Source: an uncultured Chthonomonadaceae bacterium
GTDB taxonomy: Bacteria > Armatimonadota > Chthonomonadetes > Chthonomonadales > Chthonomonadaceae
Assembly (NCBI GenBank): GCA_963817895.1
Contig: CAWFQB010000006.1
Span: 370,511-434,510 of the forward strand
Direction of reading: 5' to 3'
DNA length: 64,000 bases
The translations under genes and the position numbers were made by a program. A model generated the notes under the pieces. The model saw only the letters and a list, made by a program, of their open reading frames with translations. It did not search any database and was not told where the DNA came from. Shown here one piece after another: positions 1,523 through 17,669 of the stretch. Each line of letters opens with the position of its first letter. The first letter of the stretch is position 1.

Positions 1523-2182
1523 TTACGTGACTTCGACGATGCCAAGCGGTATCATCGTTGTCATTTGCCCGGTGTTGCTGTTGACGAAGCGGCAGGCGCA
1601 GGCGTACCAGCCGGGGGCAGTGGGCAGGGCATGGGTGAGGAGAGTGGACGTGAACGCGACGAACGCGGCGGATTTATAAAAAGGGACGGGCGAACGGCGG
1701 GGCGTTTTTAGTTTCTGGACGAGCAGTTCTACGCGGGTATCAGGCGAATTGGCCGCGCTTGCCGTAAAGAGGAGTTGGCCGGTTTCGCCGGTTAAAATGA
1801 GGGTTACGAGATCGCCAAAGTAGGGGGATATGGGCGGCGCGGGGGGTACGGTTCCGGTCGGATTGATCTGTAAGAACTTGGACGCGAGGCCGACAAAGAC
1901 GTTCTGCCCGGTGGGATGATAGGGCGCGTTGTCCGGGTCCCCGGAGCGCGTGAGCGTACTGGCATAGGCGTTCCACTGCATCGCCTGTTCGCGTGTCAGC
2001 GTGTTGTATGAAGCCATAACCTGCGCCATGCGGTTCTGAATCGTCTGCTGAATGGGCTGCGTGGGGCGTTTGTAGGTGGGACGCCCGCGCAGCACAAGGC
2101 CGTTCCGCCCTTCAACCGCAACCTCATTGCCAATTTTACCCCGTACCTGCGTTAGTAAGGGGCCGGGTGTCGCTTTTGCCAT
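1523..2182 (-). CDS. Uncharacterised 219-aa protein, paralogue of 10837..11499 (DUF6266-like N-terminus suspected)
   Basis: ORF with GGAG RBS. Colinear with the 220-aa ORF, sharing MAK..RGKxGN.V...RNG, VFVGLAxKFLQINPTGTVP and RFVNxxTGQ. Confidence 0.85.
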   Translation of the reverse strand: MAKATPGPLLTQVRGKIGNEVAVEGRNGLVLRGRPTYKRPTQPIQQTIQNRMAQVMASYNTLTREQAMQWNAYASTLTRSGDPDNAPYHPTGQNVFVGLASKFLQINPTGTVPPAPPISPYFGDLVTLILTGETGQLLFTASAANSPDTRVELLVQKLKTPRRSPVPFYKSAAFVAFTSTLLTHALPTAPGWYACACRFVNSNTGQMTTMIPLGIVEVT

Positions 2183-3312: not shown

Positions 3313-3502
3313 CCCTCATCCGTCGGGGGCCACGCTTCTCCCTTTCAGGGCGAAGGCAAGTATGGTAGTTGAGTGCGTAGATAAGGAGGTACGGAGTGAA
3401 CATAGAAAAAGCGCGCGTCATTCCAGGCTTTCATCAACGCGCCCGATGAGCAATTTAGCCTTCGCCCTTGCAGGGAGAAGGTGGCCGGAGGCCGGATGAG
3501 GG
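3313..3502. repeat. REP-like doublet (CCCTCATCCGGCC...CTTCTCCC...GGGAGAAGG family), degenerate left arm
   Basis: Arms at 3313-3357 and 3458-3502 in inverted orientation. Confidence 0.85.
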
Positions 3503-3508
3503 TAGAGC

Positions 3509-4204
3509 CTACCGTTTTGCCCGCAGCAGCGTCTCAATGTCGGAACGGCGGTACCATTGCGCAAGTATGAGGGGAGTCCTGTCATACTGATTACGCGCAT
3601 ACGGGTCGGCTCCATACGCCAAGAGCAGACGTACAATTTCTCTATCGGAGCCAATCCTGGCGGCGTAATGCAAGGCTGTACTTCCTTCTCTATCCGTCGG
3701 CGTTACGCTTGCGCCATGCTCCAGAAGAAAGCGCGTGGTATGCGGATGCTTGTTGAGGATGGCATAGAACAGAGCCGTATATTTGTCTTCGCTTATTGCT
3801 TCTATATCCGCGCCATGGGCAATCATCGCCTGCACGAGCGGCACATCGTCCGGGGACAGAGAAAGCGTTAGGTGCTGTGTTAGTTCCTGGAAACTCACAC
3901 CTCCGCAGGCAAGTTGAAGCGCGGTAGGACTGTCATTAGCAACAGGTCGCGAGCGGCGCAGGAGTTGGCGGAACAGTTGCGGGAGAGTGGGAGGCGGCGA
4001 CGCTTCCCGACGAGTGTTCGGGTCGGCTCCAGCATTGACGAGTGCGAGCGCGGCTTTGCTGTCGTGGTGGGCAAGGGCGGCAATCAGTTGCCGATTAAGC
4101 GCGTACTGCCGTTTCGCCTGCCACACCCAAACGCCGCTCGCGCCGACAACCGCCAGAACGAGTATCAACAACAGCAGTAACGAACGTCGCGCTTTCTTCA
4201 TCAT
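3509..4204 (-). CDS. Membrane-anchored ankyrin repeat protein (paralogue 1)
   Basis: N-terminal TM helix. Ankyrin motifs AGADPNT, TALFYA, GSTALHYAA, GADPY. GGAGG RBS. Confidence 0.9.
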   Translation of the reverse strand: MMKKARRSLLLLLILVLAVVGASGVWVWQAKRQYALNRQLIAALAHHDSKAALALVNAGADPNTRREASPPPTLPQLFRQLLRRSRPVANDSPTALQLACGGVSFQELTQHLTLSLSPDDVPLVQAMIAHGADIEAISEDKYTALFYAILNKHPHTTRFLLEHGASVTPTDREGSTALHYAARIGSDREIVRLLLAYGADPYARNQYDRTPLILAQWYRRSDIETLLRAKR

Positions 4205-4258
4205 CGGTTCCTCCACACGTATTGTACCCGCAGTTTCATGTGGAAACCGGGGATTGGA

Positions 4259-4448
4259 CCCTCATCCGGCCTCCGGCCACCTTCTCCCTGCAAGGGAGAA
4301 GGCGAATGTGGCAGTCTGGCGCGAGGAATAGGGGATTGCTTTGTGCGCAGCACCGCCGTACTTACAGCCCAAGTCTCCGTCCAACCGGGCATTGAACAAT
4401 TTCGCCTTCGCCCTTGCAGGGAGAAGGTGGCCGGAGGCCGGATGAGGG
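4259..4448. repeat. REP-like doublet, 190 bp
   Basis: Inverted arms CCCTCATCCGGCCTCCGGCCACCTTCTCCCTGCAAGGGAGAAGGCGAA. Nearly identical to 5293-5482 including the spacer. Confidence 0.95.
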
Positions 4449-4454
4449 TAGAGT

Positions 4455-5246
4455 CTACCGTTTCCCCCGCAGCAGGCGCACAAGGTCGGAACGCTGTTCC
4501 TTTTGCGCAAGTGTGAGAGGGCTTTCACCATCCTTGTTACGCGCATTGGGGTCGGCTCCATGCGCCAGAAGCATACCGATAATACGAGGATCGGCGTCAT
4601 CAGCTATCGCGCAATACAAGGCTGTGTTTCCTGGCCCATCCGCCATATCAACATTTGCGCCATGCTCCAGAAGGCAATGCATGGTGTCCACATCACAGCC
4701 CGCAACAGCAAACATCAGCGGCGTTTCGCCGTATGGTTCAGGCGCATTGACGTTCGCGCCAGACGCCAGCAGTAATTGCGCGATATGTGGATGCTTCCAC
4801 CGAACGGCATAGAACAGTGCCGTTCGTCCGTCCTCATCTGTTGCCTGAACATCCCCGCCATGAACCAGCATCGCCTGCACAAATGTCGCATCGTCCGGGG
4901 AATGGTAATCCGTTATGTCCTCTGGCGTCCACTCCGTAGGTACGCCTCCGCAGGCGATGTGAAACGCAGTGGTACTGTCATTGACAACGGGCGGCGAGCG
5001 GCGCAGGAGTTGGCACAACAGTTGCGGGAGGGTGGGAGGAGGCGAGGCTTCCTGACGAGTGTTCGGGTCGGCTCCGGCATTGACGAGAGCTAGCGCGGCC
5101 TTGTTGTCGTGGCGGACAAGGGCATCAATGAACTGTCGGTTGCGGGTGTATTGTCGTTTCGCCTGCCATATGCACAACCCTCCCGCGCCGACAACGGCCA
5201 GCACGATTACCAACAACAGCAGTAACGAACGTCGCGCTTTCTTCAT
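4455..5246 (-). CDS. Membrane-anchored ankyrin repeat protein (paralogue 2)
   Basis: True start MKKARRSLLLL at 5246, matching paralogue 1. Ankyrin motifs GRTALFYA, GETPLMFA, GNTALYCA, GESPL. Confidence 0.9.
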   Translation of the reverse strand: MKKARRSLLLLLVIVLAVVGAGGLCIWQAKRQYTRNRQFIDALVRHDNKAALALVNAGADPNTRQEASPPPTLPQLLCQLLRRSPPVVNDSTTAFHIACGGVPTEWTPEDITDYHSPDDATFVQAMLVHGGDVQATDEDGRTALFYAVRWKHPHIAQLLLASGANVNAPEPYGETPLMFAVAGCDVDTMHCLLEHGANVDMADGPGNTALYCAIADDADPRIIGMLLAHGADPNARNKDGESPLTLAQKEQRSDLVRLLRGKR

Positions 5247-5292
5247 TGTCGGTTCCTCTCCACGTATTGTACCTGCGAACCAGGAGTTTCTA

Positions 5293-5482
5293 CCCTCATC
5301 CGGCCTCCGGCCACCTTCTCCCTGCAAGGGAGAAGGCGAATGTGGCAGTCTGGCGCGAGGAATAGGGGATTGCTTTGTGCGCAGCACTGCGGTATTTACC
5401 GCCCAAGTCTCCGTCCAACCGGGCATTGAACAATTTCGCCTTCGCCCTTGCAGGGAGAAGGTGGCCGGAGGCCGGATGAGGG
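5293..5482. repeat. REP-like doublet, 190 bp
   Basis: Near-identical copy of 4259-4448. Confidence 0.95.
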
Positions 5483-5565: not shown

Positions 5566-8500
5566 TCACCCGGACGCCGCAGCAGAAGCCGAAGCCTCCA
5601 CATACGCGCAAACCGTCCACAACGCGTCCCATATTGCATCGGCCACAGAATGATACGGTGTAAATCCAGGCATAGTCTCGTTAATAGAAGCTCCCATTGC
5701 CTGAAACAAAAATTGTTGAACGCTAATGAAGTTGACCGCATCACACGAGGTAGAACGTCGTGTGAAAAGTTTCGTGAGTGATTCGGCGGCAGAAGCGCGC
5801 ACATTTTTGTCTTCATCCTTGCAGGCGTGGAGCAGGGCGCTGACCACTTCCCCGGAACTCTGTCCCGTCTGTCCCAGGGCTTGTACGGCAGAAGCGCGCA
5901 CATTTTTGTCTTCATCCTTGCAGGCGTGGAGCAGGGCGCTGACCACTTCCCCGGAACTCTGTCCCAACCGCCCCAGGGCTTGTACGGCATACCGGCGCAC
6001 ATTTTTGTCTTCATCCTTGCAGGCGTGGAGCAGGGCGCTGACCACTTCCCCGGAACTCTGTCCCAACCGCCCCAGGGCTTGTACGGCAGACCAGCGCACA
6101 TTGTTGTCTTCATCGTTGAGGGCGTGGAGCAGGGCGCTGACCACTTCCCCGGAACTCTGTCCCGTCTGTCCCAGGGCTTCTACGGCAGACCAGCGCACAT
6201 TGTTGTCTTCATCGTTGAGGGCGTGGAGCAGGGCGCTGACCACTTCCCCGGAACTCTGTCCCGTCTGTCCCAGGGCTTCTACGGCAGAAGCGCGCACATT
6301 TTTGTCTTCATCCTTGCAGGCGTGGAGCAGGGCGCTGACCACTTCCCCGGAACTCTGTCCCGTCTGTCCCAGGGCTTGTACGGCATACCGGCGCACATTG
6401 TTGTCTTCATCCTTGCAGGCGTGGAGCAGGGCGCTGACCACTTCCCCGGAACTCTGTCCCAACCGCCCCAGGGCTTGTACGGCAGAAGCGCGCACATTTT
6501 TGTCTTCATCCTTGCAGGCGTGGAGCAGGGCGCTGACCACTTCCCCGGAACTCTGTCCCAACCGCCCCAGGGCTTCTACGGCATACCGGCGCACATTGTT
6601 GTCTTCATCGTTGAGGGCGTGGAGCAGGGCGCTGACCACTTCCCCGGAACTCTGTCCCGTCTGTCCCAGGGCTTCTACGGCATACCGGCGCACATTGTTG
6701 TCTTCATCGTTGAGGGCGTGGAGCAGCAGTCGGGTTGTTTCCCTGCCTGCTTCCGTGTCGCCCAAATAGGCCATACGCGCCAGGAGGCGTTCGCGTAATG
6801 GCCGGTATTTGCCTGCGCCAGTCCTATCCATATACAGGGACACCAGTTTCCCCGCCACATCACGAATCAAACTCGTTTCGGCTCCGGCGCAGTCGCCCAG
6901 ACAGTGCGCGGCGAACAGCAAATCGCGGTGCAGCACATTCTCGTAAGCGCCTGGCTGAAACCCTTCCTCCTGCGCTTCTTCCCCTTGCGCAAGAATGGCC
7001 GAACGTATCAGGTCACTGGCATATTCCGGGCGGCTCTTGCTTTCATAGCCGATGGCAAGCAGTATTGGCTCCTCCCAACGGGGCTGATGCCGATGCTTAT
7101 AAATGGTTTTTGCAGTGGTCTTATAGCGCCGCAGCAGTTCGCGCCCGACATAATATTCCTCAAACGTCAGGTGCATGAAGCCAAAGTAGCCCGGCGCGCG
7201 TTCCACAAACAGGCCTGTATGCTCCCGAACGCGCCGCAAAAAGTCGTCAACCGCTTTCGTTACCTCTTCGCCGTCCGGTTCCTTGCCCCGCTGCTTTGCC
7301 AGCAGGTCGGCGAGATGCTCCTGCACGTCGCGCTTGCTCGCCATTCCCGTCGGCTTTGTCTCGTGCAGCCACAGGGCGAGGGGGCCGAGCAAGCGCAATG
7401 CCTCGTCTTCTTCCACGCACTGTACGCCCGGAATCCCCCGGTGCAGCTGCCAATCCCGCAGCAGGGTTTGCGTGGCGAGTTCGTACAACTCCACGCGACG
7501 ACGAGGCATGTGCGCGCCGTTGCGCTTGATAAGACACAGAATCGTCAGCAGGAGGGGATTGGTTGCCAGTCGGCGAACACCAAGATTGTCTTGCAGTGCG
7601 CGTTCCACGTCGGCCACTTCCACCGTCGCCCTATCCTGTACATCGCTTTCGGGAGCATCGGGCGTCAGATGGCGTTCGTAGGCGAGGCACCAGCGTTGCA
7701 GGAAGCGATGGATTTGCTCCGTCTCCATATCCTCTAGCGTGAACTCGGCAAACTCACTGCCAAGCGGCGCGATGCGATACCCGGCAATGCGGCTTGTCAC
7801 CAGAAAGCGGTTGCCCGGATTGGCGGATACAAATTCGTCAATGCGGGTGGCAATCTGCGCCCGGTCGCCGGGAGCAATGACTTCATCCAGGCCGTCCAGA
7901 AGCACAAATGCCCGTTTTGCGCGCAGGGCATCATCGAACAGCCTTTGCAGCTTCTCCGGCGCCATATTCAGTTCATCAAATGCGAGGGGCAGAAACCGGC
8001 GCAAACTCGTGGCGGGATGTTCCCTGAGATATTCGGCGTAGCGGGAAATGCGAACGAAAATCGGCAGGCAGGCTTCGCCATACTCCTCGTTTTCCGCATC
8101 CCGCACGATTGTTTCATTCTGCTGCACCGCCCGCGCGAAATGCAGTGCCAGAAAGCGCATCAGCGTAGTTTTGCCCGCGCCCGGATCGCCCAATACCACC
8201 ATACGCGCATTGGCCTTCACCGCTACGGGCAGTTCGACGCTTTCCGTCCGCTTCTCCTGCGCTTTCAGTTGAAACCGTTCTAACTCCCGCTGCTCCCATT
8301 CGTCAAACAATTCCGTCTCATAATCGCGCCCCGGCTTGTTAAAGCGGTCGCGCGTCCACGTTCGTTCCACCTGCCGTTCCGCTTTGAGCGACACGTATAC
8401 TTCGTCCAGTTTCAGCATCGCCGAGCGCGTCGTCTGCATCACGCCGCGCGGGTCCATGTACTCATTGCGCCGAAGGATGTAGTCGAGATAGAACGCGCTG

Positions 8501-9213
8501 TCAAGGGTCAAAAACCGGTGAAGGTCGCCTGAGAAGGAAACGACCGGGTTACTCTCCTCTTCGTCGCAGTTGCGGCCAAGCGCGGCAAGCGCGATATTAC
8601 GCTGCTGTCGGAACTCGCTGACGTGGTAGGCAGGCAGATTGGGACGGGTCAACATTTCGTCATAGCGGCGCACATCACGGCGGTAATCTTCAGCCTCTTC
8701 CAGCGTCAGCCTGCCAATGGCCGTTGTCGCAATTTCTGCATTACAATCCAATGGCAGTTCAATGGTCGCATCGCGCCACGCGGCGAAGTCGGGAGCCTGT
8801 TGCAGTAACTCTTGAAAAATCTGACTTGAAACCCAGAGGATTAACGCTGCCTGTGAATCGCGGACATCCTCACGATGGTTGTTGAGCAGTTCCAGTGCGG
8901 TCTGATAGTCGTCCGTGGGGCGATCCGCGAGGGCTTCCAGACCATACGCGCAGACGCATACCGGCAACTCGCGGCGTGGGATACTGCGGCAAAATCGGGG
9001 CAGGCTGCGCTGTTCCGTCTGCGCGTAATCGAATTCGCGCAGATACCGCTGCCCGCTGAGACGTTCCCCCAACTCGGCGATAGCTTCCCGGCGCAGCATC
9101 AGGTTTTCAACCAGGACAAAAACAATATGGGAACGCTCTTCATCGCGCAGCGCGTTCTCAATCTGCTGCATGGCCTCGGCTATCTGTGGATTTGTTGTAA
9201 AAACAGGGTTCAT
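5566..9213 (-). CDS. NLR-like protein: degenerate P-loop N-terminal domain + NACHT NTPase + C-terminal HEAT-like repeats
   Basis: Walker A VVLGDPGAGKTT, Walker B FVLLDGLDEV, NPLLL and FMHLTFEEY motifs, then about 9.7 33-aa HEAT-like repeats. Confidence 0.92.
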   Translation of the reverse strand: MNPVFTTNPQIAEAMQQIENALRDEERSHIVFVLVENLMLRREAIAELGERLSGQRYLREFDYAQTEQRSLPRFCRSIPRRELPVCVCAYGLEALADRPTDDYQTALELLNNHREDVRDSQAALILWVSSQIFQELLQQAPDFAAWRDATIELPLDCNAEIATTAIGRLTLEEAEDYRRDVRRYDEMLTRPNLPAYHVSEFRQQRNIALAALGRNCDEEESNPVVSFSGDLHRFLTLDSAFYLDYILRRNEYMDPRGVMQTTRSAMLKLDEVYVSLKAERQVERTWTRDRFNKPGRDYETELFDEWEQRELERFQLKAQEKRTESVELPVAVKANARMVVLGDPGAGKTTLMRFLALHFARAVQQNETIVRDAENEEYGEACLPIFVRISRYAEYLREHPATSLRRFLPLAFDELNMAPEKLQRLFDDALRAKRAFVLLDGLDEVIAPGDRAQIATRIDEFVSANPGNRFLVTSRIAGYRIAPLGSEFAEFTLEDMETEQIHRFLQRWCLAYERHLTPDAPESDVQDRATVEVADVERALQDNLGVRRLATNPLLLTILCLIKRNGAHMPRRRVELYELATQTLLRDWQLHRGIPGVQCVEEDEALRLLGPLALWLHETKPTGMASKRDVQEHLADLLAKQRGKEPDGEEVTKAVDDFLRRVREHTGLFVERAPGYFGFMHLTFEEYYVGRELLRRYKTTAKTIYKHRHQPRWEEPILLAIGYESKSRPEYASDLIRSAILAQGEEAQEEGFQPGAYENVLHRDLLFAAHCLGDCAGAETSLIRDVAGKLVSLYMDRTGAGKYRPLRERLLARMAYLGDTEAGRETTRLLLHALNDEDNNVRRYAVEALGQTGQSSGEVVSALLHALNDEDNNVRRYAVEALGRLGQSSGEVVSALLHACKDEDKNVRASAVQALGRLGQSSGEVVSALLHACKDEDNNVRRYAVQALGQTGQSSGEVVSALLHACKDEDKNVRASAVEALGQTGQSSGEVVSALLHALNDEDNNVRWSAVEALGQTGQSSGEVVSALLHALNDEDNNVRWSAVQALGRLGQSSGEVVSALLHACKDEDKNVRRYAVQALGRLGQSSGEVVSALLHACKDEDKNVRASAVQALGQTGQSSGEVVSALLHACKDEDKNVRASAAESLTKLFTRRSTSCDAVNFISVQQFLFQAMGASINETMPGFTPYHSVADAIWDALWTVCAYVEASASAAASG
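5787..6726 (-). repeat. Intragenic tandem 99-bp repeats (9 full + 1 partial) encoding HEAT-like units
   Basis: Constant blocks recur every 99 bp (for example GCGTGGAGCAGGGCGCTGACCACTTCCCCGGAACTC at 5825, 5924 and onward). Confidence 0.97.
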
Positions 9214-9225
9214 CGTCTTGCCATT

Positions 9226-10536
9226 CTATACCAACTCATCCCATATAAGCGGATGCGCGTCGAACCAGGTGCGGGAATTCTGATAGGCGACAATCAGCAA
9301 AGCGTGAAGCAGGTCGGCGCACTCCTTGTTTTGCGATGGCTTTTTGGCCTCATGTACCCTTTTCAATTCCGCCGTATTCTCGATGGTCAGGCGGCGCGTG
9401 TATTCGGCAAGCAGTTTGTCTACCGCTGTCTGCGCCGCCTGCATGGTAATGCTATCCAAGCCCTTCTGTTCGGCGTAGCGGCAGGCGTCTTCCACGAGAC
9501 GAATCAGCCAGCGTAGCACCCCTCCGCTTTTGAAGATCAACAAGTCGAGGGTATCTTTCTCGAACAACTTCTCCTCAGTCAATCCGACAGTCAGCAGCCG
9601 CTTGGTCACAACTTCGCGCAGTTCCGCATACCCCTTCTCATAGCGCGTCTCCTGATTAGTGCGATGATAAAGGCGAATGTTGGGCAGAAAGTAACATTCC
9701 GCGCTGGTTTCCACTTCGCCGAAAGCCAGCGATGTGTAAACCAACATGGGAACTGTGTAGATGATACGGCACAGAGGAGATTGAAGCGCGGTGCTGTTGA
9801 TAAACAGTTCATTGGCCTGTTCCTGCCGCTGTATCTTGTCCAGGTCGTCTACGATAACCAGCAAAGGCTTCCCGATGACATCTTCCACTTCGGCAATAAT
9901 CAGGTTGATGCGTCTGAGAATATTCGGAATTTGCGGCTCGACCGGGCGGGTACGCAGAATTTCTTCCGTCACGCCGGAGGAAATTTTGAATATTTTACCC
10001 ATCCCATCCGCCAGCATTTTACCTACGCTAGACCCTGCCATTCCGGCTGTCACTATTAACAACTTCTGCGCCAACTCTACGAGATTGAGAGATTGATCCC
10101 TTACTGTCTCTTTGTCGTTATAAGTGATGGCATAAACGGCTTCGCCCAGGTCTTGCAGCAGTTCCTTGTTGATTGCGTAACCTTCCTGTACAGCTGCCTG
10201 AAAAATTGTCGTACCGAGAAGTAACAGCAGGTCAATGAGATTGGCTTTGGGACTATCGAGATTGTGCGTGATGTTCACGTAAACGACAAAATAGTCCTCA
10301 TTGAAGTGGTCGCGCAGCTTAAACAGCAGAGAACTTTTGCCGCTTCCACGATGCCCAGTAAAGAAAGCGACAGGCGGCTTTGTGGGCTGTTCTTCCTTCC
10401 GCAATACCATAACCATATCGTCAAATGGGCTATGTTCTCGTGGGCAGTACAGAGTTCGGCTACGCTCTCCTGCAAGAACCTCCGAAGGGTCGAACGCTCG
10501 GTAAAGCTGTAACCAGAACTGTGTAGGGTGAGGCAT
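9226..10536 (-). CDS. P-loop ATPase (AAA+/STAND-like), directly upstream of the NACHT-HEAT gene
   Basis: Walker A FTGHRGSGKS, Walker B LLVIVDDLDK, SGGVLR, C-terminal WFDAHPLI. Likely start MPHPTQF with AAGGA RBS. 12-bp gap to the next gene. Confidence 0.88.
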   Translation of the reverse strand: MPHPTQFWLQLYRAFDPSEVLAGERSRTLYCPREHSPFDDMVMVLRKEEQPTKPPVAFFTGHRGSGKSSLLFKLRDHFNEDYFVVYVNITHNLDSPKANLIDLLLLLGTTIFQAAVQEGYAINKELLQDLGEAVYAITYNDKETVRDQSLNLVELAQKLLIVTAGMAGSSVGKMLADGMGKIFKISSGVTEEILRTRPVEPQIPNILRRINLIIAEVEDVIGKPLLVIVDDLDKIQRQEQANELFINSTALQSPLCRIIYTVPMLVYTSLAFGEVETSAECYFLPNIRLYHRTNQETRYEKGYAELREVVTKRLLTVGLTEEKLFEKDTLDLLIFKSGGVLRWLIRLVEDACRYAEQKGLDSITMQAAQTAVDKLLAEYTRRLTIENTAELKRVHEAKKPSQNKECADLLHALLIVAYQNSRTWFDAHPLIWDELV

Positions 10537-10836
10537 GGCAAGGTTCCTTTGCAACAGAGGATTTGATAATAGTCCTGAACACATTATACTAAAATGGTTG
10601 AGTCCTGTCAATGAGAGCAAGCGCTGTTCCAAAATCAAACACATGGCTCTATTTCTATTATGTTGTAAACGAACAGAGTACGAAACTTCAATGTCGTGGT
10701 TAAGCGCGAAATTACCTACACTGCCTGCTTCTTCCGAACATTTGTAGCGTCACCCTCAAGAGAAAACGATCATTAGCCACAATCTAATGCAATTCGCTCA
10801 ACAGGGAGCAATACAGTAATTCTGAGGAGGAAAATC

Positions 10837-11499
10837 GTGGCGAAAGTGGTGTTTGCTGCCGACATTCAGGCGATGCGGGGCAAGATGGGCAACAGTGTTT
10901 TCAGTCGGGCGCGGAACGGCAACACCGTGCGTACCCGCGTCAAGGGCAAGAACCCGCGCACGTCTGCGCAGACCGGCGTTCGGTCGAATTTCAGCAAGGC
11001 CGCCACGTCGTATAAAAACATGACGCCGGCACAGGTGAGCGCGTGGCAGGTGTACGCGGCGGGGCAGATCAAGCACGATAGCCTTTCCGGGCTGAGTTAC
11101 GTGCCGTCCGGCAATACGGTCTTTGTAGGACTGGCAGCCAAGTTCCTGCAAATCAACCCGACCGGAACCGTACCCGTCACGCCGCCCACAGCCGCCTTTT
11201 CCGGGGACAGCATCACGGTCACGGCAGCGGGAAGCAGCGGCAAAGTGATCTTTACGGGCAGCGGCAACAACAGCGCGAACATCAAAACGGAATTACTGCT
11301 CCAGCCACTGAAAAGCCAGAACCGAGCCGCCGCCAATAATGGCTACCGCAGCAAAGGCTTTATCGCGTTTGCCGGTACCAGCCTGGCACAGAATGTCACC
11401 GTACCCGCCGGCTTTTACGTGCCTGCGTATCGGTTTGTGAATACGCTGACCGGACAGGAATCGCTACTCGTCACCCTGCCTGTCGCGCAGGCTACCTGA
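10837..11499 (+). CDS. Uncharacterised basic 220-aa protein, paralogue of 1523..2182 (DUF6266-like N-terminus suspected)
   Basis: Strong GAGGAGG RBS before GTG. K/R-rich N-terminus with NPRTSAQ..R..F motif. Colinear with the paralogue. Confidence 0.88.
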   Translation: MAKVVFAADIQAMRGKMGNSVFSRARNGNTVRTRVKGKNPRTSAQTGVRSNFSKAATSYKNMTPAQVSAWQVYAAGQIKHDSLSGLSYVPSGNTVFVGLAAKFLQINPTGTVPVTPPTAAFSGDSITVTAAGSSGKVIFTGSGNNSANIKTELLLQPLKSQNRAAANNGYRSKGFIAFAGTSLAQNVTVPAGFYVPAYRFVNTLTGQESLLVTLPVAQAT

Positions 11500-13497: not shown

Positions 13498-14184
13498 CTA
13501 CCGTTTTCCTCGCAGCAGCGCCACAATGTCAGGGCGATGTGCCGCCTGCGCGGCGGTGAGGGGCGTTTGTCCCACCGTGTCAAGATGAGTCGGGTCGGCT
13601 CCATGCGCCAGCAGAAGACGCAGAACAGGGATTTTGTTTCCACTGTATACCGCATAGTACAGAGGGGTATAGCCCTTTTTATCTTCAAGGGTAACGTTCG
13701 CGCCCTGTTCCACAAGCAGCCGCGTCAGCTCCTCATCATTGCGCAGAATGGCAAACATGAGCAGGGTATCGCCTTCAAAATCCTGCTGGTCAATGTTCGC
13801 GCCATGCGCCAGCATCGCGCAAATCAGGGGCGTATCTTCCAGCGGTTGGACGTTTGCGGTCCAACTGACCGGGGATGCGTAACATGCGGTTGCATCCGTC
13901 AGCAAAAACGCCGTGTAACTATACTCTTCAGGCGCAGGCGAATGGCGCAACAGTTGACCCATAAGCGATTTCAGGGTCGGGGCAGGCGTCGGGTTGTAGC
14001 GCGTGTCGGGGTCGGCGCCCGCATTGACGAGGCCAAGCGCCTGTCCGATGTCCTTGCGGTCAAGGGCGGCGATCAGTTGGCGGTTGACCGCGTACTGCCG
14101 CTGCGCCTTCCACACCCACGCCCCGCCCGCGCCGCCAACCGCAAGAACCAGTGTCGGCAGCAATAACCAACGTCTTCGTTTCAT
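13498..14184 (-). CDS. Membrane-anchored ankyrin repeat protein (paralogue 3)
   Basis: Start MKRRRWLLLP with the same upstream TACAAT/GGAGG block as paralogues 1-2. Ankyrin motifs present. C-terminus LLRGKR. Confidence 0.9.
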   Translation of the reverse strand: MKRRRWLLLPTLVLAVGGAGGAWVWKAQRQYAVNRQLIAALDRKDIGQALGLVNAGADPDTRYNPTPAPTLKSLMGQLLRHSPAPEEYSYTAFLLTDATACYASPVSWTANVQPLEDTPLICAMLAHGANIDQQDFEGDTLLMFAILRNDEELTRLLVEQGANVTLEDKKGYTPLYYAVYSGNKIPVLRLLLAHGADPTHLDTVGQTPLTAAQAAHRPDIVALLRGKR

Positions 14185-14234
14185 GGCAACCGGTTCCTCC
14201 AGCGCTATTGTACCTGCAATCATATTCTGTTTCT

Positions 14235-15232
14235 CTACATATTGCTTTCCCGGTTTATCTCTTCCTTCAGCGCATCGCCTGCCTGCGTGTCGGGATGAAT
14301 TTCCCAGTAGCGGTGCGGAAAGTTGAAGTAGGTCATCATTACAAAGTGGTGTGACGCTGCCGAATTGAAACGCTTCTCGCAGCCATTTCGCCCGCTGCGC
14401 ATCGGACGCCTGACTGGAAATGCCCATTTCCGCAATCGCAAGCGGAATGCCTTTATGCCGCGAATGGGCCAGAACGTTCATCCACGTATGCGCCAGATCG
14501 GCAAAGGGAATCGGTTCCGCGCCGTTGCCTCCGTACGCGCTGCGGGGGCGGGAATACAGGTTCATGCTGAAAGCGTCAATACCGCCCGAGAGGGATACGG
14601 TTGAGCGCGTCCAGTACCTCGTCTTGACGATGAACGCCATTCGCCGCAAGCGGGCTGAAAATAAACAGGGCATTGGTCGCGCCCTCCTCATCGAACACGC
14701 GGCGCAGCAGCATCCACGCGGCAGCAAGGTCGGCGGGCGTGTTGTGGTATTTCCGGTTTCCGAACTCCCACGGCGTATTCAGCGTAGCGTCGTTCATTTC
14801 AGAAAACGGGCGGATGAAAAACCATTTGTTCTGATCCCGATACCGCGCGATTTCGGAAGCCAGCAGGCGCGCGTTGCGATCCAGTGGACTGCCGGAACGC
14901 GACAGTTCGCGGGTGAAAGCGGGCAGGCTGAGGTGTTCGGTTTCCAGCGCGATCTGCGGGGTAAAATCACGATGCGCTTCCGCCTCAATGGATGCCTGAA
15001 CGCGCAAATCGCGGATCAACGCGCCCGCGTCCATGCTGTCCATTTTGAAGTAGGAGAGGATGGCGGTTCGGCTGCCCGGATAATCTCGTAAGTAATCCGC
15101 GATGTGCAGCAGCTTGCCCATGCCGACTGCCATTCCCCGCAACTGCGAGGCGCGGGTAACAGGAGGCGCGGCGAAGGCAGGCGTTACAGCAATAAACGCG
15201 AACAGCAAGACAGAGTTGAGAGCGCGAAGCAT
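14235..15232 (-). pseudogene. GH26-like glycoside hydrolase with two frameshifts (pseudogene or sequencing indels)
   Basis: Signal peptide and IRPFSEMN (acid/base) in one frame, IDAFSMNLY and IAEMG (nucleophile) in a second, MTYFNF..W in a third. Shifts near 14590 and 14360. Confidence 0.7.
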
Positions 15233-15477: not shown

Positions 15478-16419
15478 ATGCTATTGTACCGCTCATGCAG
15501 GTTTGCTGTGGTTGGCGCTGTTTGTTGTCTGATCGCGTTGAGCGGTTGGCAACCAACAGCGGCGTATGCGGACGATTTCAGTCCTAATGCTTCCATGCTC
15601 AAAGAGGCGCGAGAGAGTAAAGGCAGCCCCTTGTATAAAGCCGCGCTGACAGGCAACGTAGCGAAAGTAAAAAGATTGATTGCTGCCAGGGCCAAAGTCA
15701 ACGCAGGCGATGTCAGACACCGAACACCCTTACACGCCGCCGTATTAGGTGGCAATATTGAAGTGGTGAAATTGCTGCTAACGGCGGGGAGTAAAGTAAA
15801 CGCTGTCAACGATACCCGTAACGGCGGCTGTCTAATTTTCGACGATGGCATGACCGGGACGCCCTTGCACTGGGCGGCGCAAACGGGAAACGTGGCAATC
15901 GCCCGTTTATTGATTCAGCATGGCGCGAATGTCAACTCACCGGATGCGCGCTGGAAAGAAACGCCGCTTCATCTTGTGGGCTGGCAGGGCGGGGCGCGAA
16001 TGGCGGAACTGCTGATCCAACACGGCGCGCGCTTAGATCCTGTAGGCGGTTTTACGGACGCGACGCCTTTGTATTGCGCCTGCGAATTCGATAAAGTGGA
16101 AACAGCGGGCGTTCTGCTGGCGCATGGGGCGGACGTGAACGCCGCTGCCGAGTATGGAGATACGCCTCTGCATACGGCGGTTCGAACGGGAAATGTGGCG
16201 CTGGTCAAACTGCTGCTGACAAAGAGGGTGAATCTGAACGCCGAAAGCCACATCGGGACAATGAGGTTGATGCCTTCGGGCTTCAGCAATGAAATCGGCG
16301 GAACGCCCCTGCACATCGCCAACCAGATGCAAAAGTGGGGAATCGTGAGTCTCCTGCAAGCGAAAGGCGCAACAGACACCGAGCGCGACGAACGCGGTTT
16401 CTCGCATCTACGTCCGTAA
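15478..16419 (+). CDS. Secreted ankyrin repeat protein
   Basis: Signal peptide and multiple TPLHxA ankyrin motifs. Confidence 0.9.
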   Translation: MLLYRSCRFAVVGAVCCLIALSGWQPTAAYADDFSPNASMLKEARESKGSPLYKAALTGNVAKVKRLIAARAKVNAGDVRHRTPLHAAVLGGNIEVVKLLLTAGSKVNAVNDTRNGGCLIFDDGMTGTPLHWAAQTGNVAIARLLIQHGANVNSPDARWKETPLHLVGWQGGARMAELLIQHGARLDPVGGFTDATPLYCACEFDKVETAGVLLAHGADVNAAAEYGDTPLHTAVRTGNVALVKLLLTKRVNLNAESHIGTMRLMPSGFSNEIGGTPLHIANQMQKWGIVSLLQAKGATDTERDERGFSHLRP

Positions 16420-16481: not shown

Positions 16482-16877
16482 TCAGGCCACCGATTGCACC
16501 GACTGTCCATAGGCTTGCAGAGTTTCGCGTTGCTGTTGGCGCAGTCGGGCCGCCAGAAACAGGGCATCTACTTTGTATTGTCTCGGAATGGTTTGTTCTC
16601 TCCCCAACGCCTCGAACAGCTTCAAAGCATGACGCAGGCTGCCCGATTTCATATAGCATACCGCCGCGCTGAATCGGTGCAGTGCTGCCAAATCTTTTTC
16701 TTTGTTTCGGGCGTAATATCGGGCAATTCGCTCTTCCATCGGCGCGGCCTGCGCGTAGCGTTCCACCGCTTCATCCGGGCTGTCGGTCGCGACGAGCATT
16801 TGCGCTTCCAACAGCAAAGTTGATTTCTGCCCCTGCACTTCACGAATCATTTCTTCCGTGTCCGATGTTTTTCTCAT
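16482..16877 (-). CDS. Hypothetical helical (TPR-like) protein
   Basis: 131-aa Ala-rich helical ORF overlapping the upstream stop (ATGA). Confidence 0.7.
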   Translation of the reverse strand: MRKTSDTEEMIREVQGQKSTLLLEAQMLVATDSPDEAVERYAQAAPMEERIARYYARNKEKDLAALHRFSAAVCYMKSGSLRHALKLFEALGREQTIPRQYKVDALFLAARLRQQQRETLQAYGQSVQSVA

Positions 16878-17446
16878 AGTTGTTTGTCTTCCTCATGTAC
16901 ATGGTACGAGAGAAGTATCTCACGGCGGGTGAACCCAACTACAGCGACATAGCCGCCCCATCGCATCGGGTTGTCAAGCAATTGCCGTGTTTTTTGCAAA
17001 TGCCGGTCCCGCAATATCTGTTTGTCTTCCGTTTGGCTGCCACTGATCTCGATTCCGCAAAGAACGCCGTTTTCGGAAAGAATGTAATCGAAGCGGTCAT
17101 TCCGATCTGCCACGTTCACCAAAGCCGCAGAAGTAAAAATCGGCAGCAAGGTAAATGCCAGCGCATAGGCCGCTGCTTCTGTAACATACTCTCGCTGTGC
17201 CGCCAACGGTGTCCGCGGTATTATGGCATCTGTCCATGTCCATTTGACTGCCACAAAACGCAATCCCTGACTGCCAATGTCCTGCAAAGTCACTCGGTAA
17301 TTCAGCGTGTTTCCAATCCGCGCGGGATGCTCCATTAATCGCGCTATGACAAACGGCGCGTAGATTTCAGTATTCACCGGATGATATTGAAAACTTTCCT
17401 CAAGCGCAATCTCTATCACCGGAGAACTCTCTGCGGAATCACTCAT
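16874..17446 (-). CDS. Putative PD-(D/E)XK-fold nuclease-like protein
   Basis: Motif spacing TEAAA(E-helix)...DRFDYIL...GIEISG resembles the restriction-endonuclease fold. Confidence 0.6.
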   Translation of the reverse strand: MSDSAESSPVIEIALEESFQYHPVNTEIYAPFVIARLMEHPARIGNTLNYRVTLQDIGSQGLRFVAVKWTWTDAIIPRTPLAAQREYVTEAAAYALAFTLLPIFTSAALVNVADRNDRFDYILSENGVLCGIEISGSQTEDKQILRDRHLQKTRQLLDNPMRWGGYVAVVGFTRREILLSYHVHEEDKQL

Positions 17447-17669
17447 GGCAACAAACCTTTTAAGGAAAGCAACTGGCCCAGCTTGCAACCGCTTCGCATA
17501 AGATTCACTTGGATTTCATGTCTTTTGGTTACGTCAGGCGAAAAAACATGCAATTTGATGCTATTCCGATGAAGTAAAGTTTTTCGGTACTGCTCGGAAA
17601 GTTGATCCGCCAGTTATTCGATGGCTTCCAGTGTCGGTGTCATAAGTCCTGCTGTGTCGAAATCTCAGA

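Follow-up and report, generated by a model that had tools for sequence, protein, structure and literature searches.

In the NAIP-NLRC4 sensor-helper pair of NLRs, the sensor supplies an assembly surface. KAP NTPases such as PifA and RdrA carry an insert between strand 2 and Walker B, and two transmembrane helices in the NTPase domain. In type I BREX, according to the accessible text of PMC13326643, the inactive protein BrxB gives R182 to the ATP pocket of BrxC, and BrxB-PglZ lifts the ATPase activity of the BrxC N-domain 2-6 fold; PMC12839542 describes BrxB as an inactive five-stranded AAA+ core without Walker motifs and helical bundle. The mobile two-gene nSTAND2 operons (Kaur et al., 2021, PMC8195603) place an active and an inactive STAND NTPase side by side and are predicted to yield a hetero-multimer. 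Neighbourhoods in the accessible part of PMC10853773 hold several AAA+/STAND-type NTPases per operon, with an Orc/Cdc6-like domain fused to NACHT, pentapeptide or TIR, a second Orc/Cdc6 whose Walker B is disrupted, plus a KAP NTPase. Here we describe a locus that shares features with each of these. It occupies positions 5566..10536 (minus strand) of a 64,000-nucleotide (nt) stretch, "the window", from an uncultured Chthonomonadaceae bacterium (GCA_963817895.1, contig CAWFQB010000006.1, 370,511 to 434,510), and consists of gene A, a stand-alone ATPase, followed by gene B, whose product begins with a dead AAA+ domain (the "plug") predicted to sit on the ATP site of A. The A-plug cassette is real, conserved and, as far as our searches reach, undescribed: no description of the pair was found in the accessible portions of the literature, PMC13581612 included, with Leipe 2004 and the supplements of Kibby et al. 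and PMC10853773 outside this scope.

Gene A (10536..9226, minus strand) encodes 436 amino acids (aa) and gene B (9213..5566, minus strand) 1215 aa, arranged as dead AAA+ domain, helical hairpin, NACHT and HEAT repeats; 12 nt (9214..9225) separate them. An earlier note, made from the letters and a list of open reading frames (ORFs), had placed an ATPase 12 bp ahead of a 1215-aa protein. Both ORFs, their strand and the gap were as it described, and a motif check found all the motifs that it named at the given residues of the two proteins. It had also read the first ~155 aa of gene B as a degenerate P-loop NTPase domain. This was borne out by the AlphaFold2 model of residues 1-155 (8749..9213, minus strand; predicted local distance difference test (pLDDT) 92.2, predicted template modelling score 0.86, 99-row alignment). 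The plug has five strands (29-34, 57-62, 85-90, 123-128, 149-152) with flanking helices and carries the motifs IVFVLV (residue 30), VCAYGLE (87), LNNHRE (110), LILWV (124) and APDFAAWR (140). When the model was compared with 48,161 solved chains, 50 of the 50 matches listed were AAA+/STAND/KAP-type ATPases or inactive relatives (Z 9.6-11.8), led by Cdc6/Orc1 (Z 11.8, root-mean-square deviation 3.9, 155 residues aligned) and TnsC (Z 11.6, 3.4, 156 aligned); Foldseek and a second VIA pass concur on the AAA+ fold. Only three residues part strand 1 from the next helix, a turn in the place of the P-loop, so the P-loop is physically absent. GK[ST] was found anywhere in 1 of 146 homologous plug domains. 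The domain ends after strand 5, with no lid and no winged helix.

None of the listed structural matches of the N-terminus is a known effector fold, and searches for one by sequence (Pfam, PADLOC, NCBIfam, PDB sequences) returned matches at chance level only. Pfam (gene B and 99 homologues), PADLOC and NCBIfam gave no convincing family for the plug, and its matches in the ESM Atlas are unnamed clusters. By profile, the plug family comprises 8077 clusters at 50% identity, 4791 of them at E<=1e-10. Conservation is concentrated on one face, LNxxRE plus APDFxxWR. R114 (8872..8874, minus strand), on the helix before strand 4, is invariant (99/99), lies within the interface modelled below and is the candidate trans-acting arginine; around it N111 is kept in 82 of 99 rows, E115 in 73, A140 in 91, D142 in 90 and W146 in 69. 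APDFAAWR itself (residues 140-147; 8773..8796, minus strand) forms the helix before strand 5, which we take to be the usual AAA+ arginine-finger place. The plug could be what is left of a decayed tandem duplicate, no longer serving any role, and its divergence would suit this: homologues share about 20% mean column identity, and profile-profile comparison with gene A gave a probability of 5% for paralogy, though the Walker B strands align. A remnant would hardly be expected to keep an invariant arginine and a conserved face across 8077 clusters, nor to use exactly that face in the modelled interface, and we regard this explanation as very improbable.

The model of gene A (pLDDT 88.9) shows an AAA+ core with an insert of ~120 aa, a lid and a C-terminal winged helix, and no sensor repeats. 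By its predicted fold it is a Cdc6/ORC-TnsC-like ATPase, adjacent to STAND and KAP: a chain from 7jgr, an ORC-Cdc6 structure, scores Z 17.0 and TnsC Z 16.3, both above NLRs (Z about 12) and the KAP protein RdrA (Z 11.3). Pfam gave only scores below cut-off, for AAA_16, AAA_22, KAP and ATPase_2; that for KAP_NTPase was borderline (19.9 bits, cut-off 20), with 29 of 99 family members at E<=0.001. The PADLOC check proposed for defence identity did not supply one, the plug having no convincing match and gene A a weak match to PifA only. These two scores recall KAP NTPases, as does the insertion that separates strand 2 from Walker B; gene A differs from them in being shorter, in matching Cdc6 and TnsC folds better than RdrA, in lacking a clear transmembrane pair and in having a dedicated plug partner.

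By its motifs gene A is probably an active ATPase. Walker A (GHRGSGKS, residues 61-68; 10333..10356, minus strand) keeps H62 in 93, R63 in 96 and K67 in 98 of 99 rows, and Walker B (LLVIVDDLDK, residues 225-234, VDDLDK from 229; 9835..9864, minus strand) keeps D/E230 in 99, D/E233 in 98 and K/R234 in 97, position 231 being variable (D/G/N/S). The lid motif GGVLR (9511..9525, minus strand) has G338 and G339 in 99/99 rows and R342, at a sensor-2-like position, in 85/99; R313 is also conserved among ATPase relatives. AAA+ proteins carry trans-acting arginines at two places, the helix that follows Walker B and the one ahead of strand 5. Gene A has no conserved donor of this kind: columns 238-257 and 268-283 hold Arg in at most 24 of 99 rows. 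(The arginine finger and tether of ORC are described in PMC5291709.) The insert between strand 2 and Walker B contains a glycine-rich amphipathic helical hairpin (residues about 151-196; 9949..10086, minus strand), with low pLDDT at 162-182. Stretch 120-215 measures 95-100 aa in the subclade of the window, compared with 70-93 in most other rows listed; the best 19-residue hydropathy of the hairpin is 1.23 in gene A and up to 1.8 among the rows listed.

The note had proposed that the inactive domain recruits the separate ATPase, and the modelled pair passed its controls on the surface expected. ESMFold2 modelling of gene A with residues 1-165 of gene B scored 0.69, the best of three controls scoring 0.00; in calibration, 116 of 157 solved complexes attained the mark for this score, as did 2 of 215 mismatched pairs, figures that apply only approximately to our own alignments. 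The runs share at least 72% of contacts, with partner pLDDT of at least 84. On the side of gene A the interface comprises residues 5-18, 63-64, 88-96, 231-236, 342-357, 374-382 and 408-413, and thus the N-terminal helix, the FDP motif, the P-loop (63-64), Walker B (231-236) and the lid (342-357); R63 is in the interface and R342 touches residue 145 of gene B. On the side of gene B it comprises 17-30, 70-73, 104-118 and 130-150, of which 104-118 and 137-150 belong to the conserved face. The plug is therefore predicted to sit on the ATP site of gene A, head-to-tail as in AAA+ assemblies, and we think it likely that the two proteins bind directly. Conservation is complementary: gene A keeps the cis motifs and lacks a donor arginine, while the plug lacks the cis motifs and keeps R114 in 99/99 rows. 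We infer from the model that R114 may act as a trans-acting arginine finger. Because P-loop, lid and winged helix are missing, the plug would be able to take just the donor end of an assembly and no position in a ring.

By analogy, the nearest solved precedent is BrxB-BrxC of type I BREX. In both cases a compact inactive AAA+/STAND domain sits at the ATP pocket of an ORC/Cdc6-type ATPase, a placement that here is modelled and would include the donation of an arginine. The two differ in several respects. According to the accessible descriptions, BrxB of types 1 and 3 has a three-stranded cap sheet after strand 4, where the plug has helices 130-139 and 141-145, and BrxC has its own donor, R330, whereas gene A has no conserved one. 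The plug is fused to TPR or NLR sensors, there is no Pfam BrxB match among 99 members of its family, and no BREX (PglZ/PglX) genes occur among 63 proteins that flank the cassette of the window, 11 loci of the NACHT clade and one paralogous locus. For all its likeness to BrxB-BrxC, the cassette is thus not a BREX system. As a candidate best fold of the plug, BrxB is missing from the 50 structural matches listed, where BrxC is present (Z 9.9).

Co-occurrence of the two genes across genomes, which the note had named as a check, was seen both in a broad sample and in the genome itself. We fetched 159 loci by their ATPase (the best 80 of at least 176 genomic matches, and 79 from the best 80 of at least 147 metagenomic matches). 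A plug, called with a profile grown from the N-domain of the window, lies within 500 nt behind the ATPase in 140 of these 159 loci; many homologous A-B pairs overlap by 4 nt or abut. The loci were selected by ATPase; a count within the genome of the window is free of this bias, and found each of 5 plugs paired with one of 5 near-full ATPases, one of these ATPases being interrupted; a fragment of 144 aa stands alone. Of the 19 loci without a plug call, 12 have no more than 600 nt of sequence beyond the ATPase. In L034 the partner lies 2.4 kb downstream, and L092 and L137 are broken ATPases. L080, L147 and L148 have no plug in the 735-1065 nt behind the ATPase, and L186, a gene A relative, has none within about 9 kb on either side; because of these four, the pairing is not strictly obligate. 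In L091 (2-2569), ATPase, plug and TPRs share one open frame with nearly no linker, which may be a true A-B fusion or a lost stop codon. Distances among ATPases and among plugs correlate (Spearman 0.49, a value that none of 500 permutations reached), which shows co-inheritance only.

An alternative is that the plug is a guard, holding gene A off at its ATP site and blocking self-assembly until sensing or loss of gene B frees it, much as in a toxin-antitoxin pair. The modelled interface would be the same, the gene coupling is tight, a plug without a cis site must end a chain, and in BREX, according to the accessible text of PMC13326643, a bound BrxB keeps another BrxC subunit from joining at its place. 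A free, self-activating A is made less likely by its want of conserved donor arginines; the supposed toxin would be the upstream gene; and lone or broken copies persist (L186, L080, L147, L148 and the fragment at C2:682371). We therefore hold a guard to be unlikely.

By record title, the relatives come from Cyanobacteriota, Chloroflexota, Acidobacteriota, Bacillota, proteobacteria and one archaeon. Across the phylum, matches of any strength occur in 43 of 201 genomes and strong ones (E below 1e-15) in 18 of 201, a patchy spread; the sole close orthologue among these 201 (genome G087) has a different neighbourhood. Single genomes hold up to 10 matches (G061). No match was found in 50,697 phage records, viral contigs gave a single match limited to a 21-residue P-loop stretch, and 7 plasmid records have matches. 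The genome of the window has four paralogous cassettes (C2:480381, C10:23067, C10:85842 and C1:609699), two of which look interrupted; their partners are one NB-ARC-like NTPase with TPR and three TPR proteins.

Of 127 partners with at least 60 residues after the plug, 88 were scanned for domains. The result was 72 with TPR and no second NTPase, 11 with NACHT, 1 with NB-ARC, 1 with TIR (a truncated protein) and 3 with nothing. The NACHT form is thus a minority, and the note's view of NACHT-HEAT as the core of the system has to be given up: the core is the ATPase and the plug. Most homologues fuse the plug straight to TPR sensors, and in one clade it is grafted onto whole NACHT proteins. Indeed, a 48-row ATPase tree, with 28 TPR-type rows drawn at random, contains a 15-row clade (bootstrap 100, Shimodaira-Hasegawa approximate likelihood-ratio test (SH-aLRT) 99) in which 13 rows have NACHT partners; the two others are the truncated TIR protein and a fusion to vWA, and no TPR-only row falls inside. 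The clade was also recovered in a 99-row quick tree. The NACHT label of L090 comes from a truncated partner (E 2e-7). Outside the clade are L020 (NACHT) and two NB-ARC cases. Five further long plug proteins (P0272-P0276) all carry NACHT. The three-NTPase form seen by the note is therefore a conserved one, within this one ATPase clade.

Sensors in the NACHT clade vary (HEAT, TPR, WD40 with pentapeptides, FGS), and NACHT does not track the ATPase tree. Identity to the window is 0.44 for the ATPase and 0.21 for the NACHT of L002, and 0.31 and 0.49, respectively, for L088; judged by these values, NACHT modules have been swapped within the clade. Between plug and NACHT, relatives carry TIR plus an Mrr-type restriction nuclease (L002, L003), TIR (L082) or DUF4062 (P0275, P0276). 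The note had put the plug in the effector slot. Here it does stand alone before NACHT, as claimed, but because TIR, nuclease and DUF4062 domains may come behind it, the plug appears from these architectures to be a docking module rather than an effector, placed either alone before NACHT or ahead of real effectors. Other partners join the plug to NB-ARC and STAS (L121, 6708-8525), to TPR and glyoxalase-like matches (L103, L105) or to TPR and a CHAT protease (L016).

These domains bear on a further alternative, that gene A is a helper that loads, licenses or resets its partner and so sets a threshold, the response coming from effectors on gene B or from proteins encoded elsewhere. Enzyme domains do lie behind the plug in L002, L003, L082, P0275 and P0276, as does CHAT in L016; in MANTIS, by the accessible account, a AAA+ ATPase brings in another enzyme and switches it on, and in BREX BrxB links BrxC with PglZ (PMC13326643, accessible text). 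The main Pfam signal is TPR only in 72 of 88 partners, however, no enzyme domain was found in gene B of the window or in the partners of G087 and L001, and the cassette has no conserved third gene near it. A helper role so defined is doubtful.

The architectures also set the cassette apart from described STAND systems. In nSTAND2, as far as PMC8195603 is accessible, both proteins have an arginine finger and the inactive one carries GT4 or HEPN effectors. Here gene A has no conserved donor arginine, and the partner keeps the alpha/beta subdomain only and carries sensors or whole NACHT modules; GT4 and HEPN are absent from the best 5 Pfam matches of the 88 scanned partners (of 127) and from gene B of the window. 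The nSTAND2 model, assuming that it is in the library, is absent from the Pfam matches of 99 ATPases and 99 plugs. In the neighbourhoods of PMC10853773, seen in its accessible part, the polarity is opposite: there the active copy is fused and the defective one keeps Walker A, and here the P-loop is missing from the copy that is fused. The ternary iSTAND/VMAP MoxR-vWA systems (PMC7159879, PMC8195603) likewise contain inactive STAND domains, and a gene A relative occurs in one of them. It is L186 (5120-10293, plasmid p057_J of Nostoc sp. C057), an ATPase of the NACHT clade, 74% identical to that of L088, fused to vWA within a VMAP-MoxR-vWA system and placed at the C-terminal effector position of vWA, a position described in PMC7159879. 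MoxR and vWA genes were found only at L186 and are absent around the window and the 15 loci listed; nor is there a Pfam iSTAND match among 99 plugs. The cassette is probably a variant form of the STAND/iSTAND conflict systems, and the wiring proposed for it is concrete. PMC8195603 reports the MNS-clade STANDs Npun2340/2341 fused to TPR+GreAB-C+PIN, and rows of its supplement given as 'KAP-NTPase-> KAP-NTPase+FGS' might include relatives, a comparison made by description only.

Behind the plug, gene B has a probable helical hairpin (residues about 165-215; 8569..8721, minus strand; helicity read from the sequence). This hairpin is common to the closest NACHT-bearing partners, and in relatives TIR or DUF4062 is inserted directly behind it. 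The NACHT NTPase core (residues 337-509; 7687..8205, minus strand) matches Pfam NACHT above cut-off (E 9e-11, 42.3 bits versus 26.7), with Walker A and B intact (GDPGAGKT at 342, LLDGLDE at 438) and TSR at 473. It is followed by a helical and winged-helix region (7114..7686, minus strand), located by the positions of NPLLL (552) and HLTFEEY (681), which we take to be the NACHT helical and winged-helix motifs. Next comes a HEAT array (5797..6726, minus strand), in which a tandem-repeat scan counted 9.4 copies of a 99-nt (33-aa) unit, 93% identical; Pfam places the repeats from residue 829, as an array spanning 829-1155. An intact NACHT followed by a repeat sensor, as the note had it, is thus what we find. 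Across the 9 full units 9 codons vary, 8 of the 9 with a change of residue and in mixed combinations, a pattern that suits repeat shuffling in a receptor. The Walker B of gene B is of the D[GAS]hDE type that defines the NACHT signature in the accessible text of Kibby et al. (bioRxiv 10.1101/2022.07.19.500537), and the HEAT sensor class is shared with bacterial NACHT proteins described there; the N-terminus of gene B differs from theirs in being a plug tied to an upstream ATPase, with no enzymatic effector or known adaptor. In a quick tree the NACHT of the window groups with that of a stand-alone NACHT-HEAT protein of the same genome (97 SH-aLRT). This sister (L183, C2:726900-731184) has no plug and follows a metallophosphoesterase-like frame, as judged by eye from its motifs; the piece scanned gave no Pfam match. 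The metallophosphoesterase-like motifs are spread over different frames, which points to a decayed gene or to assembly errors.

Taken together, we put forward, at somewhat less than an even chance, a two-gene sensor-plus-output conflict cassette, in which gene B encodes the receptor and gene A a constant ATPase that delivers the output, the plug completing the ATP site of A. A ligand, probably derived from a phage, would bind the variable HEAT array; NACHT would oligomerise and cluster plugs; and each plug would dock head-to-tail on the nucleotide site of A and complete it in trans, most likely through R114. Since A lacks a conserved donor arginine, its hydrolysis and assembly should depend on B, and A would be recruited and switched on as the output. 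The output may be growth arrest, through the inserted amphipathic hairpin or the winged helix, though this is a guess. That A acts as the output in the window follows from the lack of an enzyme on its gene B; most partners carry none either, no third gene is conserved, and L186 has the relative fused at the effector position of vWA. An output role of A switched on by B is a tentative assignment. A conflict or immune role of the cassette is moderately probable, and is suggested by the insertions of TIR with restriction endonuclease (REase), TIR or DUF4062, the VMAP-MoxR-vWA fusion of L186, near-identical HEAT repeats that vary non-synonymously, and the patchy spread.

Besides the four loci without a plug, several observations weigh against this sensor-plus-output reading. 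The canonical finger position, R147, is kept in just 55 of 99 rows; the complex was folded without ATP, and the contact listed for R114 is residue 18. As the geometry is that of AAA+ head-to-tail interfaces, the score of the complex may partly reflect likeness to solved ones (ORC, RFC, TnsC, BrxB-BrxC). Gene A has no recognisable toxic domain, its hairpin (1.23) falls short of a clear transmembrane segment, and in copies that carry TIR or nuclease domains the output may lie elsewhere than in A. Finally, 0 of the 63 flanking proteins match a BREX, Avs or NACHT-partner model, and no defence island was seen. Matches of the flanking proteins are mostly generic (ankyrin, oxidoreductase, GlgB, TnpB-like, reverse transcriptase), with three nuclease-type exceptions.

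The lack of defence neighbours would suit a non-immune role in signalling or DNA targeting, in which a Cdc6/TnsC-like ATPase is nucleated on DNA or a scaffold by repeat proteins, as regulation or as a relic of transposition. The best folds of plug and gene A are indeed Cdc6/ORC and TnsC, and up to 10 matches in the G061 genome would fit a signalling family. Such a role is improbable given the fusions to conflict-type domains (TIR, REase, DUF4062, FGS, vWA), HEAT repeats that look diversifying, and the absence of a transposase or conserved target gene beside the cassette.

The sensor-plus-output reading can be extended, in a form that we consider rather unlikely, to a prokaryotic sensor-helper NLR. 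The plug would be portable and graftable onto any receptor (TPR, NB-ARC, NACHT), and the activated NACHT ring would nucleate assembly of the executor ATPase, so that the cell is killed or arrested without a nuclease or NADase, perhaps through a membrane-facing hairpin. As in NAIP-NLRC4, a sensor would offer one assembly surface to a separate, constant NTPase; here, however, the surface is a separate fused dead domain and not the NACHT of the sensor, and the helper lacks both repeats and a known effector. If the sensor-plus-output mechanism is true, an NLR is wired to its output by a composite ATP site, with no fused enzyme and no Death-like or amyloid adaptor; the BrxB-BrxC mechanism reaches past DNA restriction to pattern-recognition receptors; and a role is given to the large unannotated plug family and to ATPases labelled 'hypothetical' or 'P-loop NTPase fold protein'.

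Upstream of gene A lies a predicted sigma-70-type promoter, a perfect match to the consensus TTGACA-17-TATAAT (10583..10611, minus strand), 46 nt before the ATG at 10536. It lies inside a longer frame of 472 aa that starts from ATG 10644; for this reason the longer frame is probably not used, and gene A probably starts at ATG 10536. Perfect sites of this type number 72 in the whole 7.48-Mb genome, and the full score of 12/12 was reached in 0 of 400 random 250-nt stretches. The four paralogous cassettes score only 8-9/12. A strong promoter was therefore rejected as a conserved feature of the cassette, the perfect site being found in the window copy alone. Among sequencing runs containing the locus, no RNA run is listed, and there is one DNA run (share 0.12).

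The surroundings of the cassette showed some further features. Ankyrin-repeat genes, mostly with a hydrophobic N-terminus, lie at 3509-5243 (minus), 13498-14727 (minus) and 15478-16419 (plus) of the window and at L180:1521-6809; they flank the cassette both in the window and in G087, the other neighbours differing. Two similar-looking ORFs of 219-220 aa, at 1523-2182 (minus) and 10837-11499 (plus), flank the region and have no Pfam or PADLOC match. At 16482-17488 (minus) there are small overlapping ORFs of 131 and 204 aa with no Pfam match, the longer with an acidic pattern of D...E-x-S type, read by eye, that might indicate a nuclease. An intergenic tandem repeat (4.2 copies of 33 nt) occupies 1339-1475. 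A short repeat, in translation PSSGLRPPSPCKGEG and its reverse, recurs between genes at about 3400-3500, 4230-4300, 4400-4450 and 5290-5480 of the window, and again at C2:727000 and C2:731200; it is probably an intergenic inverted repeat.

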